This document shows, piece by piece, positions 21,561 through 28,293 of a stretch of 41,212 nucleotides of DNA. Source of the DNA: a bacterium (lineage in GTDB: Bacteria > Patescibacteriota > Saccharimonadia > Saccharimonadales > Saccharimonadaceae); contig JAJYAA010000001.1 of NCBI GenBank assembly GCA_021779755.1, positions 1 through 41,212 of the forward strand, written 5' to 3'. Each line of letters begins with the position of its first letter. Positions within the stretch are counted from its first letter, which is position 1. The notes under the pieces are model-generated. The model had not been told where the DNA came from. It saw nothing but the letters and a program-made list of their open reading frames with translations, and searched no databases. The position numbers and the translations under genes are program-made.

Positions 21561-22859
21561 TTAAATTATATTATCGCCAATAATATCTTCTGGCTGGGCG
21601 CCGAGTTCATAGATACGCATGTCATCGTCACTGATCTGCCACTCTTCCTGAACCGGACGCAGTATCTCCCACGAACGCAAGACTTCTTTGCTACCCGTGA
21701 ACAGACTCTTGCGCGACTTGATCGCATCAACAATAACTTGCTCGTAAGCGTCTGGGAGGTCGGCATCTTCGGGATAACTGAATTTCAGCTGCTGGCGCTC
21801 AAACTCACGATCATAGCCAGGCTTCTTGACAAAGAACTCCATTTCAACACCTTCATCTGGCTGTATTTTAAATTTAATACAGTTACTTTGAGCTTCATGC
21901 GTCTTGCGTAAATGCACTTTAATCTCGGTGGTTTTCTGACCCAGGCCCTTGCCTGTTGTTAAAATCAGCGGCACTCCTTCCCATTCTGGAGCGTGCGAAC
22001 GTAGCTGCAGCGACACAAACGTCTCGATCGCACTGCCCGGATTGCCGACTTCTTCACGATAAGTATTATATTGTCCACGAATAGCCATTTCGGGGTTAGC
22101 AATGTCAAGCTGCTCCAGTGCGGCCAAGCGCATGTCTGGCAATTTAGACCACTCAAAGTCCTCGGGTATGTGCATCAAGGTTAACGACAGCAGCTGCATC
22201 AAGTGCCCTTGAACCAAGTCTCTCAGGGCACCTGTTTGCTCGTAGAAATGCGCACGGCCTTCGATGCCAATTTTTTCCAGCGCCAGAACTTCAATCTTTT
22301 CAATCACACCTCCGTTCCAGATATGCGAAAAGAAGGCGTTACCGCCGCGAAAAGCTACAATATTCTGCGCCATCTCTTTTGCTAGGTAGTGATCGATACG
22401 ATAGATTTGGTCATCAGAGAAGTGGTGAGCTGTTCGATCAATTAGATCAACCGCCGACGCATAATCCATGCCAAACGGTTTTTCGTACATAATCTTGACA
22501 TTCGACGAATTCAAACCAGCCTGACCCATGAAATCGACTATCTGCGTCGCCGACAGTGGCGGCACAGACAGATACGCGATTACCTGCTCATCAGCTTCAA
22601 GCGCCAGTTTGTCTTTGAGCCTCGTATATTCTCCGACCTCAGACAAATCCATCGTGAACATACTAAACTTATCAACAATGTCATCGACATTACCGAGCGA
22701 CGACTCTAATAACTGCCTAATGTCAGCCTCATGACGAGACACGCCAATAACCTCTAGGTTATTGAAGTCACCTGTCCGAATGATACGACTAATAGCTGGT
22801 AATAGTTTGCGATGACCAAGGTCACCCGTGATGCCGAATATAACTAATTTTGTTTTCAT
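21561..22859 (-). CDS. zwf: glucose-6-phosphate dehydrogenase
   Basis: LVIFGITGDLGHRKLLPA and the active-site motif RIDHYLAKE. 432 aa, shorter than typical Zwf. Confidence 0.9.
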   Translation of the reverse strand: MKTKLVIFGITGDLGHRKLLPAISRIIRTGDFNNLEVIGVSRHEADIRQLLESSLGNVDDIVDKFSMFTMDLSEVGEYTRLKDKLALEADEQVIAYLSVPPLSATQIVDFMGQAGLNSSNVKIMYEKPFGMDYASAVDLIDRTAHHFSDDQIYRIDHYLAKEMAQNIVAFRGGNAFFSHIWNGGVIEKIEVLALEKIGIEGRAHFYEQTGALRDLVQGHLMQLLSLTLMHIPEDFEWSKLPDMRLAALEQLDIANPEMAIRGQYNTYREEVGNPGSAIETFVSLQLRSHAPEWEGVPLILTTGKGLGQKTTEIKVHLRKTHEAQSNCIKFKIQPDEGVEMEFFVKKPGYDREFERQQLKFSYPEDADLPDAYEQVIVDAIKSRKSLFTGSKEVLRSWEILRPVQEEWQISDDDMRIYELGAQPEDIIGDNII

Positions 22860-22920: not shown

Positions 22921-23919
22921 TTAACTATCTTTCTTAGAATCCCCGCCGGAATTGACTTCGTAACTAGTGTTAGTACTTTCAAAGAAGTTCACTAGCTGCA
23001 ACGTGTCATTAGCTGCTGCCATCCATTTGGCTGGATTAGATACTTTGTAGTGGGCATCGAAACCAAGCTCTTCCAGGCGGCGGTCGGCCAAGTATTTAAC
23101 ATACTGGTTAATATAATCGCTGTTTAGACCCAAAATACCATTTGGCAGTAGGTCGCGGTTATATTCTTCTTCCATGTCGACACCATCAAGTATCATTTGT
23201 TTAATTTCGGCGGCAAACTCTTCGGTCTGCAAATCTTCGTTCTCTTCTAGGACTGTCAAGATCAGGTTAATACCGAATTTGAGGTGCAAGCTTTCATCGC
23301 GTACGACCCAGTCGATCAAACTACCAAAGTTACGCAGCAAATTACGCTGACGGAATGACAAAGCAACCATAAAACCGCTATAAAACCAGATGCCTTCTAG
23401 AATTACATTGTAAGCAATCAGGTTGCGTACAAAGTCTTTCTTGCCCTCAGTAGTCGTAATATCAAGCGTCTCTTCGGTCATGCGCTTAATGTACTTGGTT
23501 TCAAACTCTTCCTTGCGTGCCATTGATGGCGTATCGACATGGGCAGCATATGCCTGATCGCGGTCAATCGGAAAAGTTTCAAGCACGTACTCAAAGCTCA
23601 TACAGTGATTAGCTTCTTCCCACATTTGCTTTGCAAGATACAGGTGACATTCAGCCGCATTGACGTATGGATAAACACCAAAAGCCAGCGCCTTGTTAAC
23701 TAACAGCTCATTCGGGTTAAAATAGCTCATCAAGAAAGTAATGGCATGACGCTCTTCTTCGCTCATCTTCTTCCAGTCAGACAAATCCTGACCTAGCTGA
23801 ATTTCATTCGGAAACCACGTATTGGCTACAGCCTGATCGTACAGATCCATCGCCCACTGGTATTTAACTGGTTTTAATAATAGTCCGTCCTGTATACCCG
23901 TGCCTAAGATTCCTGGCAT
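22921..23919 (-). CDS. nrdB: ribonucleotide reductase small subunit, class Ic-like (Phe at radical site)
   Basis: Metal-ligand motifs NPNELLV, EEANHCMSF, ILEGIWFYSGF and RDESLHLKF. Close by-eye resemblance to the Chlamydia trachomatis R2c sequence as I remember it. SD GGAGG. Confidence 0.9.
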   Translation of the reverse strand: MPGILGTGIQDGLLLKPVKYQWAMDLYDQAVANTWFPNEIQLGQDLSDWKKMSEEERHAITFLMSYFNPNELLVNKALAFGVYPYVNAAECHLYLAKQMWEEANHCMSFEYVLETFPIDRDQAYAAHVDTPSMARKEEFETKYIKRMTEETLDITTTEGKKDFVRNLIAYNVILEGIWFYSGFMVALSFRQRNLLRNFGSLIDWVVRDESLHLKFGINLILTVLEENEDLQTEEFAAEIKQMILDGVDMEEEYNRDLLPNGILGLNSDYINQYVKYLADRRLEELGFDAHYKVSNPAKWMAAANDTLQLVNFFESTNTSYEVNSGGDSKKDS

Positions 23920-23920
23920 A

Positions 23921-24208
23921 TTAATTTACCTCCGCTAAAATTTCACTATTAGTCATCATGACGTCCAACTCTGCGGCTACGTCGACATCATCGAATTCCG
24001 CTAAGCGGGCCGCCAATATTCCCATATCGCGCACAGCAACCTTCCGCCATTCGCGCAACTCGGCTATGTTCTCCGCTGTTCGTGTGGTGCTTGGCTCCAT
24101 CAAATTGGTGCCTAATTCGTCATACCACGCGAGCAAACCGTCTAGCCGCTCACTAGTCTCTTCCCGATTATTAAAAAACTGTTCCGTCCGTGCATCGCTC
24201 TGTTCCAT
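23921..24208 (-). CDS. hypothetical acidic helical protein embedded in the nrd operon (95 aa from ATG-24208)
   Basis: ORF-track entry 23921..24232 begins with GTG; ATG-24208 lies 7 nt after the stop of the upstream small ORF. Its stop (23921-23923) is 1 nt from the nrdB ATG (23919), and its last codons contain the nrdB SD. Confidence 0.55.
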   Translation of the reverse strand: MEQSDARTEQFFNNREETSERLDGLLAWYDELGTNLMEPSTTRTAENIAELREWRKVAVRDMGILAARLAEFDDVDVAAELDVMMTNSEILAEVN

Positions 24209-24215
24209 AAAAACC

Positions 24216-24389
24216 TTATTGGCAGCCGTCACACATTGTTAAGTCAGCTGGGTCCAGTGGCGCAGCTATGGCGCCACGAGAGGCGGCATCCTCGTCAGCT
24301 TGCGCCTGAGCGTTGGCCATTGCCTGATCAATAGCCGCTAACTTTTCTTCTAATGTCATTTCGTCATTGATGATTGATGATGCGTTCAT
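24216..24389 (-). CDS. 57-aa hypothetical protein with C-terminal CxxC (MNASSIINDEMTLEEKLAAIDQAMANAQAQADEDAASRGAIAAPLDPADLTMCDGCQ)
   Basis: Hand-translated; it falls below the ORF-track length cut-off. ATG-24389 is preceded by GGGGGA with a 5-nt spacer, and the stop TAA is at 24216-24218. It sits between the nrdA stop and the next ORF. Confidence 0.5.
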   Translation of the reverse strand: MNASSIINDEMTLEEKLAAIDQAMANAQAQADEDAASRGAIAAPLDPADLTMCDGCQ

Positions 24390-24452
24390 GAATTTCCCCC
24401 TATGTTTTACTTTTGCTCAATGTTTGAAAAAATTAACAACAACTTACCATAA

Positions 24453-26846
24453 CTATACTCCCGCTTTCGCGAACCCAAAACCGGCTTTACGTGGACCAGA
24501 TGTCGTTTCGGCCTTGTTAACCTTTACTGTACTTTGTTCAGCAGAGTGGCGCGGCTTTACATGCAAATAATAGGTTGTTTTGAGCCCGCGCTGCCATGCT
24601 GCCGTATAGATTTTGACCATCTCGTCGATGTCGCGGGTCTCGAGGTACATATTGCGGCTGATTGCTTGGTCAACCCACTTCTGCGCCCTAGCGGCCACTT
24701 CGATAAAGGCATACGGACTCAGCTGGAAGCTGGTCTTGTATACATCTTTTATTCGCTGTGGAATAACATCGATTTGTTGTACATCGCCCTGCAAACGCAA
24801 TAGGTCGTCTTTGACTTCGTCCCACAAATTAAGTTTCTTAAGGTCATTAACGAGGTTAGTATTCACTTCTAGGAATTTACCGTTCAGGGTTGCGCGACTA
24901 AAGATTTGTGCAAACTGTGGATCAATTCCCGGTGTTGTACCGGCGATGTGAGCAATGTTCGCCGTTGGTGCAATTGCCATCAGGGTAGCATTGCGCATAC
25001 CCTTCTTGACCTTGGCGCGCAATTTCTCCCAATCCAGGCGAGTTTTACGTGTCACCTCCACCTTAACCCTGCGATCATCTGCCAATTGGTCGATTGTATC
25101 AATCGGCAGAATGCCCTTACTCCAACCACTACCCTTAAACGTTGGGTAAGAGCCAAGCTTTTTGGCGAGAACCGTCGACTCATCAATTGCGTGATAGCTA
25201 ATAAATTCCGTCAATTGATCCATCAGGTCATAAGCCTCTTCTGATTCATAGCTATAGCCAAGCTTCTCAATTACATCTGAAAAACCCATGATACCCAGGC
25301 CAAGGGCCCGGTTTTGCTTGTTACTATTCATCGCTTCCGGCACCGGCGTATTAGTGATATCAACCAAGTTATCTAGCTGACGAATAGCACTGCGCGAACT
25401 ATTGTCTAGGCGGTCCCAGTCCCACGTCTTGTCGGCGTTTAGAAAAGCCGATAGGTTGATACTGACCAGATTGCAAACAGCCGTATTATCTTTGTCTTGC
25501 GGCAAAGTAATCTCAGTACACAGATTAGACAGGTGAATCGTGCTGGTATTATTGTTCAGAGCACGAACATTAATTGTATCTTTCCAGGTTAACCAAGGGT
25601 GGCTCGTCGCTTGCAAGGTAATCAAAATCTGACGAAACTGCTCGCGCGCCTTTGTCTTGATAAACTCACGCATCTCACCTTTTTCGGCTTTCTTAATATA
25701 TTCAGCATAACGAGCGCTAAACTCAGCACCATATAATTCTGGTAGGTCTTGAACTTCGGCTGGGTCGAATAGGTACCAGTCCTGATCCTTTTGGACACGC
25801 TTCATAAACTCGTCGCTTATAAATACGGCCGTGTTTGCTAGTCGTGTACGCAAGTACGGATCACCAGAGTTTTGTTTCAAGTCTAAAAATTGAGGGAAAT
25901 TCAAATGCCAGTTTTCCATATATAATGCTGCTGCGCCAGCCTTTTTGCCTTTGCGACTAACTGCAAATAATGCCGTATCAATCATTTTCATAAAAGGAAT
26001 TGGGCCAGTTGACTCGGTATTAGTGGTTTTAACTGGACTACCGGCGGCGCGTAGTTTGTTTAGACTAATACCAATGCCGCCCGTACCCTTGGCTATCCAC
26101 ATAACATCACGGACGCCCTTAGCGATTGACTCCATGTCGTCCTGAACTTCAATCAAAAAGCAGTTAGATAGTTGCGGGAATGACCCACCGGCGTTAACCC
26201 GAGTCGATCCACCAGGAACATAATCCAGCTTGCTCATGTGCTCATAAAAGTCCAAGGCGCTAGCAGTCGGATCTTCAGCATTAAAACTAAGGCCCATCGC
26301 AATACGCATGTGAGTAAATTGCGGCACTTCAACCGGTTCGCCGCTCTGTCGGCGCAGCGCATAGCGATTCTTGTTAGTGACTACACCCAAGTATTTACTC
26401 AGGTTATCACGCGACGGATCCAACGCTTTAGCTAGCCTCTTAATATCGAAGACTTTTGAGTTCATGCGTCCATCCAACAGACCATCGGCGATACCCTTCT
26501 TCAAAAAGTCAGCGAACTTCTGCTCATGCAGTTTCTTCAGCTCGGCCTCGTCTTTGTAATCACCTAAAATATTTTTATAAATATTCTTCAAAAGCAGCCT
26601 AGCCGCAATGACATCAAAGTCTGGGTCATCTTTTACGTTCTGCAGAGCGGTTTGGATCACGGCTTCATCCAGCTGCTCACTAGTAATACCATCAAATAAT
26701 GTCAGCTGTAATTCGGTTGCCACCTGAACAACTTTACTAATTTGGTCAGCTAAACCTTCACTAGCCTTGACGAGCGCCAAGTTAATTTTGTTGGCGTCAA
26801 ACAGTTCACGGGTGCCGTCGCGCTTTACTACATGTATCTCACTCAT
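24453..26846 (-). CDS. nrdA: ribonucleotide reductase large subunit (class I, with N-terminal ATP-cone)
   Basis: ATP-cone VVKRDGTRELFD, active-site motifs LSNCFL and SNLCTEI, and the radical-transfer pair KTTYYL. 797 aa. Confidence 0.95.
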   Translation of the reverse strand: MSEIHVVKRDGTRELFDANKINLALVKASEGLADQISKVVQVATELQLTLFDGITSEQLDEAVIQTALQNVKDDPDFDVIAARLLLKNIYKNILGDYKDEAELKKLHEQKFADFLKKGIADGLLDGRMNSKVFDIKRLAKALDPSRDNLSKYLGVVTNKNRYALRRQSGEPVEVPQFTHMRIAMGLSFNAEDPTASALDFYEHMSKLDYVPGGSTRVNAGGSFPQLSNCFLIEVQDDMESIAKGVRDVMWIAKGTGGIGISLNKLRAAGSPVKTTNTESTGPIPFMKMIDTALFAVSRKGKKAGAAALYMENWHLNFPQFLDLKQNSGDPYLRTRLANTAVFISDEFMKRVQKDQDWYLFDPAEVQDLPELYGAEFSARYAEYIKKAEKGEMREFIKTKAREQFRQILITLQATSHPWLTWKDTINVRALNNNTSTIHLSNLCTEITLPQDKDNTAVCNLVSINLSAFLNADKTWDWDRLDNSSRSAIRQLDNLVDITNTPVPEAMNSNKQNRALGLGIMGFSDVIEKLGYSYESEEAYDLMDQLTEFISYHAIDESTVLAKKLGSYPTFKGSGWSKGILPIDTIDQLADDRRVKVEVTRKTRLDWEKLRAKVKKGMRNATLMAIAPTANIAHIAGTTPGIDPQFAQIFSRATLNGKFLEVNTNLVNDLKKLNLWDEVKDDLLRLQGDVQQIDVIPQRIKDVYKTSFQLSPYAFIEVAARAQKWVDQAISRNMYLETRDIDEMVKIYTAAWQRGLKTTYYLHVKPRHSAEQSTVKVNKAETTSGPRKAGFGFAKAGV

Positions 26847-26985: not shown

Positions 26986-27014
26986 ACTATACGCCCCTAT
27001 ATATGGACTTTCAA
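26986..27014 (-). promoter_or_regulatory. sigma-70 type promoter of the nrd operon (TTGAAA-17-TATAGT)
   Basis: Minus strand reads TTGAAA gtccatatataggggcg TATAGT. It would give a ~130-nt leader before ATG-26846 (SD GGGGA). Confidence 0.5.
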
Positions 27015-27120: not shown

Positions 27121-27897
27121 TTATATCGAGTACTCTATAGTACCGCCATCACCAGCCTTTTTCTTTTGCTGTTTCTGGGCATACATTAGTGCATCCGGTC
27201 CGTGTAACAAGTCCTTCAGGGGTACGGTAGTCGCCTCACGATAACCATATACAACACCTCCAAAAGAGAACTGCATATTAGATAACGCCCTATTTAATCT
27301 ATTAATGGCCCCTTCATTATCGGGACCAATCTTTACCGATTCATGCAACCAGGCTTTTATACGATCAGGTAGATCTTGTATATATGCATGAATGTCAAAT
27401 ACCGACTCACTATCCCCCAGAGTAACACGCCTGTCGCCAGGGATGGCCAGCACAAACTCATCGCCGCCGAAACGAGCAACGAGATCATCCGTGCGCGTCA
27501 CATGACGCAGGGCATCAGCCAAGTACCTGATCGCCTGGTCGCCCACTTTATGTGAAAATTCATCATTAAAGTCGTGCTTCAAGTTATCGATATCGACGTA
27601 GATAATACCGATTTTAGCATCGGTGTTATCTTTGTTCTGTTCCCGCCACGTAATAAACTTTTTTTCAAAGCCGCGCCTGTTCAAGAGACCTGTCATCGGC
27701 TCGGTGTAAACTTTCTCTTGTAATTCTTTGTTTTGGACTGCCAATCGTGCAGCTAACTCAGCTAATTGACCGATGGCCTCTGCGTGCATACTCGGATCCA
27801 ACGCCTCAGCAGTAACAGCTCCGGTCATTAGTGCTTCGACGACGTCGAATTCTGACAGGTGGTCGTGGGGTGTAATATCTCCTGCTGTATCTGTCAT
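27121..27897 (-). CDS. GGDEF-domain diguanylate cyclase
   Basis: LTGLLNRRGF, intact GGDEF motif and an RxxD I-site 5 residues upstream (RTDDLVARFGGDEF). Short coiled N-terminus with no recognisable sensor domain. Confidence 0.85.
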   Translation of the reverse strand: MTDTAGDITPHDHLSEFDVVEALMTGAVTAEALDPSMHAEAIGQLAELAARLAVQNKELQEKVYTEPMTGLLNRRGFEKKFITWREQNKDNTDAKIGIIYVDIDNLKHDFNDEFSHKVGDQAIRYLADALRHVTRTDDLVARFGGDEFVLAIPGDRRVTLGDSESVFDIHAYIQDLPDRIKAWLHESVKIGPDNEGAINRLNRALSNMQFSFGGVVYGYREATTVPLKDLLHGPDALMYAQKQQKKKAGDGGTIEYSI

Positions 27898-28203: not shown

Positions 28204-28293
28204 TGGCGGAGAGAACAGGATTCGAACCTGCGATAACGTTGCCGCCATACACGCTTTCCAAGCGTGCGCCTTCAACCACTCGGCCATCTCTCC
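28204..28293 (-). tRNA. tRNA-Ser (anticodon GGA), CCA encoded
   Basis: Reverse complement GGAGAGATGGCCGAGTGGTTGAAGGCGCACGCTTGGAAAGCGTGTATGGCGGCAACGTTATCGCAGGTTCGAATCCTGTTCTCTCCGCCA. It has a 7-bp acceptor stem, anticodon loop TTGGAAA, a long variable arm and a GTTCGAATC T-loop. Confidence 0.9.

Follow-up and report, generated by a model that had tools for sequence, protein, structure and literature searches.

A small conserved gene of the Saccharibacteria ribonucleotide reductase operon that probably encodes a stand-alone redox-shuttle tail

The stretch of DNA analysed here (hereafter, the window) comprises 41,212 nucleotides of contig JAJYAA010000001.1 (assembly GCA_021779755.1, Saccharimonadaceae). 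Its minus strand carries a ribonucleotide reductase (RNR) operon in the order nrdA (26846..24453), a small open reading frame (ORF) of 57 codons, a 95-amino acid ORF (24208..23921), and nrdB (23919..22921). A preliminary description suggested that the small ORF ends like the redox-active tail of an RNR large subunit, and that it may supply this tail in trans or be the fossil of a split gene. We found that the small ORF is a real gene under strong purifying selection, and comparison of related loci indicates that its product is probably a trans-acting redox-shuttle tail subunit of a class Ic-type RNR, made as a 57-residue polypeptide of its own. The features on which this reading depends are as follows.

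24216..24389, minus strand: small ORF, 57 amino acids plus stop, proposed stand-alone redox-shuttle subunit of RNR
24400..24395, minus strand: Shine-Dalgarno sequence GGGGGA, 5 nt before the ATG at 24389
24276..24353, minus strand: residues 13-38, predicted alpha-helix with the conserved motif MTLEEKLAAIDxAM, putative docking element
24261..24275, minus strand: residues 39-43, the last five linker residues
24219..24260, minus strand: residues 44-57, PLDPADLTMCDGCQ, extreme C-terminal tail motif P-x-D-P-(5)-C-x-G-C-Q
24222..24233, minus strand: C53-D-G-C56, the invariant cysteine pair
24453..26846, minus strand: nrdA, 797 amino acids, with ATP-cone, all-alpha, and barrel domains (Pfam, NCBIfam)
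26160..26162, minus strand: NrdA C229 (QLSNCFL), invariant in an alignment with five distant NrdAs
25518..25520, minus strand: NrdA C443 (SNLCTEI), invariant in the same alignment
25473..25475, minus strand: NrdA C458 (AVCNL), invariant in the same alignment
24456..24551, minus strand: NrdA residues 766-797, a short, basic, Cys-free tail ending in RKAGFGFAKAGV, predicted to be disordered

The minus strand from 24389 to 24216 translates to MNASSIINDEMTLEEKLAAIDQAMANAQAQADEDAASRGAIAAPLDPADLTMCDGCQ followed by a stop codon. The nrdA stop codon (TAG, 24455..24453) lies 63 nt upstream of the small ORF, whose TAA is followed by 7 nt and then by the next ATG at 24208; the ORF listing also gives the downstream 95-amino acid frame an alternative GTG start at 24232, which overlaps the small ORF. 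Coordinates, translation, Shine-Dalgarno sequence, and both spacings agree with the preliminary description. In the window, the small ORF is in frame with nrdA, and three in-frame stops fall within the 63-nt gap. The encoded protein has a net charge of -9 over the whole chain and contains only two Cys, without a His- or Cys-rich site. Its helix bears a hydrophobic stripe (L13, L17, I20, and M24). The acidic, Ala-rich linker, at approximately residues 31-43, shares its first residues with the end of the predicted helix and is variable both in length and in sequence. The protein had been described as essentially a helix, a linker, and a terminal CxxC: the tail in this account stood, whereas the part that precedes it proved to be more than a linker, in that residues 11-30 belong to a highly conserved helix.

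A search of 5.8 billion proteins returned 1,112 homologues at E<=10. The 120 matches listed were 57-75 amino acids long and 81-100% identical, and few of them were named, as "hypothetical protein" from metagenome-assembled genomes of Saccharibacteria or Saccharimonadales. An exhaustive profile search of 1.84 billion representatives gave 122 clusters at 50% identity. Apart from two weakly matching long repetitive proteins, all were short and stand-alone, and no fusion of the small protein to NrdA occurred among the 122. We then compared 80 species-level genomic loci, nearly all labelled Saccharibacteria, whose NrdA is 78-96% identical to that of the window. The small gene was present in 78 of these loci and the other two were cut contigs, so that every complete locus (78/78) has the gene; in nearly all 78 orthologues a G-rich Shine-Dalgarno sequence precedes the chosen start, the choice having favoured starts with such a sequence. 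One locus, L076 (DATMTU010000183.1), is labelled Dongiaceae (Alphaproteobacteria) although its NrdA is 82% identical to the Saccharibacteria enzyme, and it is probably a mis-binned Saccharibacteria contig.

Selection on the small gene is purifying, with a median ratio of nonsynonymous to synonymous divergence (dN/dS) of 0.17 over usable pairs; between the window and locus L001, for example, dN was 0.05 and dS was 1.85. By pN/pS, the linker is the least constrained part (0.59), and the helix (0.29) and tail (0.22) are held more tightly. The synteny and the selection for which the preliminary description proposed checks are both seen, the latter at its strongest on the tail and helix. Throughout the family, a variable N-terminus is followed by the conserved helix, an acidic or Ala-rich linker of variable length, and the CxxC ending. 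The helix motif reads (M/L)(T/S)L(E/D)EKLxAI(D/E)xAM, with an invariant L17 and with family-wide conservation of 90% or more at L13, K16, and I20. In a diverse family alignment the ending P-x-D-P-(5 residues)-C-x-G-C-Q, placed directly before the stop codon, has both Cys and P47 invariant; the endings found were CEGCQ, CDGCQ, CDSCQ, CESCQ, and the Q-to-E variant CDGCE. The protein gave nothing above noise in Pfam, NCBIfam, and PHROGs, and among PDB sequences its profile found no RNR tail, the sole match being a designed coiled coil at E=0.77. AlphaFold2 predicted for the protein alone a helix at residues 13-38 (predicted local distance difference test score, pLDDT, approximately 76-82), with confidence dropping toward the C-terminus to a mean pLDDT of 62 for residues 41-50 and 50 for residues 51-57.

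In class I and class II RNRs, re-reduction of the active-site disulfide by a Cys-bearing C-terminal tail is textbook knowledge. The NrdA of the window matches class I models (NF005101 and TIGR02506); its best NCBIfam match, to NF005101, scored 1334 bits over profile positions 2-790 of 822. It has three Cys in total (C229, C443, and C458) and none after residue 458. We take C229 and C458 to correspond to the active-site redox pair C225 and C462 of Escherichia coli, and C443 presumably corresponds to the thiyl-radical residue C439. With only these three catalytic Cys, the enzyme would form an active-site disulfide at each turnover and have no tail Cys to reduce it. The Cys-less NrdA tail noted in the preliminary description holds for the window and for all 80 related NrdAs, each of which ends in a short basic stub without Cys, approximately 28 alignment columns before the end of its fused-tail relatives. 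The closest solved structure, Pseudomonas aeruginosa NrdA (5IM3, E=1e-183), is matched only as far as its residue 934 of 963; beyond that point, P. aeruginosa NrdA has a tail of 29 residues versus 8 in the window NrdA. All 79 complete NrdA tails in loci L001-L080 contain a basic stretch and then a GFGF motif (RKAGFGFAK), a motif not found in the fused-tail NrdAs examined, and this stub may be a docking site for the small acidic protein.

What the Saccharibacteria NrdA lacks at its end is what the small protein carries at its own. Five plasmid-borne NrdAs extend approximately 28 alignment columns beyond the NrdA of the window and end, at the stop codon, in QACSIDNPDCEACQ (P. aeruginosa), MCSILDPNCEACQ (Legionella), ACSINDPDCEACQ (Phyllobacterium), FDDCEACQ (Acaryochloris), and VEDPTCEACQ (Halorussus). 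When metagenomic NrdAs were retrieved with a profile of fused NrdAs, all 120 ended in CxxC[QE] (CEACQ in 92, CESCQ in 19, CDACQ in 5, CEACE in 2, and CEVCQ in 2), and 102 of them had [DN]P 1-6 residues before the Cys pair. The usual fused end is DPxCEACQ, as compared with DP(5)C[ED]GCQ in the small protein; in a joint alignment of small proteins with 78 fused NrdAs, both Cys were invariant and D, P, and Q were at least 90% conserved. Open frames of 45 codons or more numbered 10,694 in the 1.17 Mb of DNA examined; 109 of them terminate in C[DE]xC[QE], and all 109 are either members of the small family or fused NrdA tails, with no such end among the approximately 10,600 unrelated frames. One family member of 47 amino acids with three Cys, P0241, ends in FACPVDPDERSRCEGCQ, which recalls the three-Cys proteobacterial form ACSIDNPDCEACQ; its gene (L086:6001-6144) adjoins genes for a SmaI-like restriction enzyme and an N6/N4 methyltransferase. 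In the phage and plasmid collections, NrdA identity did not exceed 48%, and these collections therefore failed to yield the closest fused-tail relative of the Saccharibacteria enzyme. Two apparent signals were set aside: a MAFFT pairing of the helix with a TEKST..LNAV segment of fused NrdAs was judged an alignment artefact because hhalign gave it no support, and a concatenate of NrdA and the small protein moved the end of the NF005101 match from 790 to 811 with a gain of only 2.2 bits, which was not counted as evidence. A construct in which the tail alone was appended to NrdA did not extend that match.

The position of the small gene also varies. Across loci, 14 to 175 nt separate it from nrdA, and its frame relative to nrdA is not constant. 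Another order, in which nrdA is followed by nrdB, a gene for a PNPOx-like protein, and then the small gene, occurs in 18 of 76 loci and places the small gene 1.1-2.6 kb from nrdA; these loci include L044, L049, L052, L055, L056, L059-L062, L065, L070, L072-L075, L077, and L078. The PNPOx-like protein is a flavin mononucleotide-binding protein of approximately 135 amino acids (PF01243, E=7e-14; L060:7649-8056 and equivalents), and in these 18 loci NrdB is only 67-71% identical to that of the window. The varying gaps and the two gene orders show that the small gene has shifted on its own without leaving the RNR operon. Read-through of nrdA into the small ORF is ruled out by the intervening stops, the variable gaps and frames, and the relocation after nrdB.

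Copies of the small gene were also found on phage-like contigs. A scan of IMG/VR identified 30 contigs that encode the small protein at 53-70% identity, and the more distant members P0242 and P0232 lie on phage-like contigs in the neighbourhood of genes for RusA, ThyA, an amidase, and a collagen-like protein; P0231 adjoins a VRR-NUC gene. With P0232 as query, nothing was found in the viral contig collection. In two contigs tested with PHROGs, the presence of phage genes was confirmed: one or both had matches to a DNA polymerase exonuclease subunit, polynucleotide kinase, and replication initiation, and L105 also to RNA ligase, an endolysin amidase, and a transglycosylase. Many of these copies are followed by a redoxin gene. 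A PF00462 glutaredoxin gene begins at or just before the stop of the small gene in L088 and L089-L091; the best NCBIfam match of the L088 gene is NrdH, at 67.5 bits, which is below the curated cut-off. In 11 of the 30 IMG/VR contigs a redoxin homologue lies downstream, at 3-12 nt in ten and at approximately 190 nt in L113, and 7 of these 11 resemble the CVQC/WSGFRP type of NrdH, the motif having been read in two. Over the phage-like loci as a whole, the redoxin directly follows the small gene in 14, and in a fifteenth it lies approximately 190 nt downstream. The redoxins are of two kinds, NrdH-like (CVQC, WSGFRPD) and YruB/glutaredoxin-like ((W)CAFC), as at L088:671-910, L102:6165-6410, L089:6159-6422, L115:5105-5353, and L113:6364-6591; those of L088 and L102 carry both CVQC and WSGFRP, which we take to be hallmarks of NrdH. 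Two contigs (L104:6159-6308 and L110:304-480) carry in tandem a second, far more divergent paralogue of the small protein, and these paralogues end in IDPMDELQCDSCQ and TDPMDDLQCDSCQ, with the pattern DPM D(E/D)LQCDSCQ. Carriage of the small gene by phages, alone or with a reductant, is as expected of a factor acting in trans on the host enzyme.

The other features of the operon are as follows.

26986..27014, minus strand: best sigma-70-like promoter match (10/12), upstream of nrdA
23921..24208, minus strand: 95-amino acid acidic ORF, a lineage-specific occupant of a variable slot and not part of the conserved system
22921..23919, minus strand: nrdB, 332 amino acids (Pfam/NCBIfam NrdB)

Neither a terminator-like site on the minus strand between nrdA and nrdB nor, anywhere in the operon, an Rfam match was found. 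Unrelated, lineage-specific ORFs of 58-104 amino acids, most of them acidic, occupy the slot that separates the small gene from nrdB (for example, L004:6601-6888, L008:6630-6902, and L013:6608-6850). Among the loci compared, the 95-amino acid ORF of the window has relatives only in L001 and L004; this ORF and two other slot ORFs had no Pfam match, and the window ORF also had none in NCBIfam. NrdB has Phe at the position of the radical Tyr (WEEANHCMSF) and Glu as the first metal ligand (NPNELL), an R2c-type signature common to 75 of 76 related NrdBs, with Ile in the remaining one; by these residues NrdB is of the class Ic or R2c type, with the Mn/Fe signature. Directly downstream of nrdB, an ORF at 21561-22859 (minus strand; N-terminal GITGDLGHRKLLPA) looks like a glucose-6-phosphate dehydrogenase and could be a source of reduced nicotinamide adenine dinucleotide phosphate (NADPH) for a reductant chain. 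Upstream of the operon lie a GGDEF-type, diguanylate cyclase-like ORF (27121-27897, minus strand) and a tRNA-Ser(GGA) gene (28204-28293, minus strand), the two neighbouring ORFs being assigned by inspection of their sequences.

Comparative evidence of four independent kinds supports the proposal that the shuttle tail is supplied in trans: a Cys-less NrdA and the small gene occur together in all 78 complete loci, a complementary loss and gain; the small protein terminates like the fused tails of the closest NrdA relatives; the tail and helix are the parts under the tightest purifying selection; and redoxin genes of the NrdH or glutaredoxin kind lie downstream of copies on phage-like contigs. 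Several observations weigh against it. The likeness to fused tails is confined to DP and the last five residues; in hhalign only the last five columns aligned (CeGCQ with CEACQ), at a modest P=0.0012, and DP is separated from Cys by 5 residues in the small protein versus 1 in most fused tails. For the helix, hhalign detected no equivalent among fused tails, so that simple gene fission fails to explain the whole protein. When AlphaFold2 was applied to an artificial chain joining NrdA to the small protein, using an alignment that was partly misaligned over the last approximately 70 residues of the fused NrdAs, NrdA was well folded (pLDDT 84, predicted template modelling score 0.85), residues 766-800 and 847-854 fell below pLDDT 50, and the helix scored no higher than in the protein alone; neither tail nor linker was confidently placed, and docking is unsupported. 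A search for thioredoxin and glutaredoxin motifs, over the whole window and up to 4 kb in the cellular loci, found none. Neither nrdA nor nrdB was found within 6 kb of the small gene in the 30 IMG/VR contigs, which were viewed in part so that an RNR elsewhere on them is possible, and no RNR or redoxin gene lies within 6 kb of P0241 in L086. A more general role in thiol-disulfide exchange would also fit these copies.

Such a general role, in which the small protein would be a thiol-disulfide protein or redoxin substrate used outside RNR re-reduction and its linkage to nrdAB would be secondary, is the strongest of the alternatives and, in our view, unlikely. It would account for the phage-like contigs on which the small gene is paired with a redoxin without an RNR gene within 6 kb, for L086 with neither nearby, and for the absence of any close NrdA relative from the viral collection. 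It does not readily account for the RNR-operon location in 78/78 cellular loci under two gene orders, or for a terminus that is specific to NrdA tails, occurs in no other open frame examined, and is exactly the element that NrdA misses; NrdH, moreover, is itself a reductant dedicated to RNR. We consider still less likely a regulator that, as a tail mimic or in the manner of Sml1, would occupy the active-site entrance or the tail-binding surface without delivering electrons. Eukaryotic RNRs are controlled by small intrinsically disordered proteins, the product here is small, acidic, and largely helical or disordered and is encoded in the RNR operon, and phages might manipulate the host RNR with such a protein. 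However, NrdA has no tail in cis against which it would compete, both Cys are invariant within an exact redox-tail consensus, the coupling to NrdH- and glutaredoxin-like genes points to electron transfer, and an enzyme with a redox-active C229/C458 pair would still need a route for its reductant.

An improbable reading is that of a metal-handling peptide, such as a CxxC metallochaperone or a Zn-, Fe-, or Mn-binding factor for assembly of the NrdB cofactor. A terminal CxxC can bind metals, NrdB has the class Ic-type ligand set, the cofactor-assembly factors NrdI and YfaE are encoded in other RNR operons, and the PNPOx-like flavoprotein gene adjoins the small gene in 18 loci; yet the protein has only its two Cys and no His- or Cys-rich site, its motif is that of NrdA tails and not of known chaperones, and the phage-like contigs pair its gene with redoxins and have no nrdB within 6 kb. 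We give almost no weight to the view that the ORF is the decaying leftover of an nrdA gene that split recently, or else a functionless artefact of annotation or assembly, even though it lies just downstream of a truncated-looking nrdA and, in the window, in the same frame across 63 nt. Synonymous sites are saturated while the protein is conserved, the family spans 122 clusters at 50% identity, three in-frame stops interrupt the gap, gap lengths and gene positions differ between loci, and phages acquired the gene independently, with tandem paralogues in two contigs. The fossil of a split gene that the preliminary description held in reserve is rejected on the same grounds, namely the selection data, the relocation within the operon, and the phage capture.

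If the small protein is a redox-shuttle subunit, as we think probable, the C229-C458 disulfide of NrdA would be reduced after each turnover by C53 and C56 of the small protein, and the oxidised small protein would in turn be re-reduced by a redoxin of the NrdH, glutaredoxin, or thioredoxin type, with NADPH, via thioredoxin reductase, as the likely ultimate electron source. The conserved N-terminal helix may anchor the small protein on the holoenzyme and, more speculatively, could bind the basic GFGF stub of the NrdA tail. The broader picture towards which the evidence leans, by a smaller margin of confidence, is that the only visible aerobic RNR of Saccharibacteria consists of NrdA, an R2c-type NrdB, and a diffusible, helix-anchored tail, and that phages have captured the tail gene as an auxiliary. 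Phages could have captured this gene, whether alone, as tandem pairs, or with an NrdH-like reductant, because the tail works in trans. Extra gene copies and a reductant might then raise the host output of deoxynucleoside triphosphates by relieving a re-reduction bottleneck of the host enzyme, and the phage would need to encode no RNR of its own.

This arrangement, if confirmed, would have practical and conceptual consequences. A tail that is both disordered and tethered makes the re-reduction step hard to observe; a separate, titratable tail of 57 residues would allow binding, mixed-disulfide trapping, and kinetics to be studied in a class I enzyme. The term "split RNR", so far applied to a single class II subclade, would come to cover class I as well, a named function would be assigned to a widespread family of over 1,000 hypothetical proteins in Saccharibacteria, and an enzyme tail with its reductant would constitute a new kind of phage auxiliary gene. 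For annotation pipelines, the Cys-less NrdAs of Saccharibacteria should not be taken for truncated pseudogenes, and the flavoprotein encoded in some of the RNR operons could bear on cofactor assembly or electron supply.

Among known systems, the yeast R1 subunit provides a CX2C tail that acts between protomers and regenerates an active site to which it is not covalently attached, while still being part of the R1 chain; Sml1, a small disordered inhibitor, uses the same R1 surface as that tail, without a CxxC function. Like the C-terminus of a class I NrdA such as that of P. aeruginosa (ACSIDNPDCEACQ, PDB 5IM3), the small protein has a terminal Cys pair within the consensus DP..C[ED]xCQ before the stop codon, a low-complexity linker ahead of it, poor order by prediction, and a partner NrdA with a C225/C462-type pair. 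Unlike it, the small protein is separate, has its own Shine-Dalgarno sequence and start codon, is movable within the operon, occurs on phage-like contigs, and has a conserved N-terminal helix and a longer spacing from DP to Cys. The function of an RNR redox tail is known, and its stand-alone version in class I is undescribed in the literature found: our searches returned no description of the small protein or of a split class I tail. According to a 2022 survey, most class I RNRs carry a C-terminal CXXC, and split chains are treated as a class II feature (PMC9669993). The preliminary description knew of no precedent, which stands for class I; a partial precedent does exist in class II, in the split NrdJa/NrdJb of P. 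aeruginosa, where NrdJb carries the redox cysteines, acts in trans by thiol-disulfide exchange, and is indispensable in vivo (PMC4520616). Both systems combine a catalytic chain without tail Cys with an adjacent gene for a Cys-bearing piece. NrdJa/NrdJb is class II, depends on adenosylcobalamin, and has no NrdB, whereas the window system has nrdB and is of the class Ic type; and unlike NrdJb, the small protein has 57 amino acids, two Cys, no Pfam or NCBIfam domain, and one main predicted helix. The reductants NrdH and glutaredoxin are likewise small CxxC proteins tied to the electron supply of RNR and encoded in RNR or phage nucleotide-metabolism modules. The small protein, in contrast, lacks a recognisable thioredoxin fold (no match to PF00462, PF00085, an NCBIfam redoxin, or a PDB sequence) and has its CxxC at the C-terminal end and not at the start of a helix, and it is more probably a substrate of NrdH- or glutaredoxin-type redoxins than one of them.

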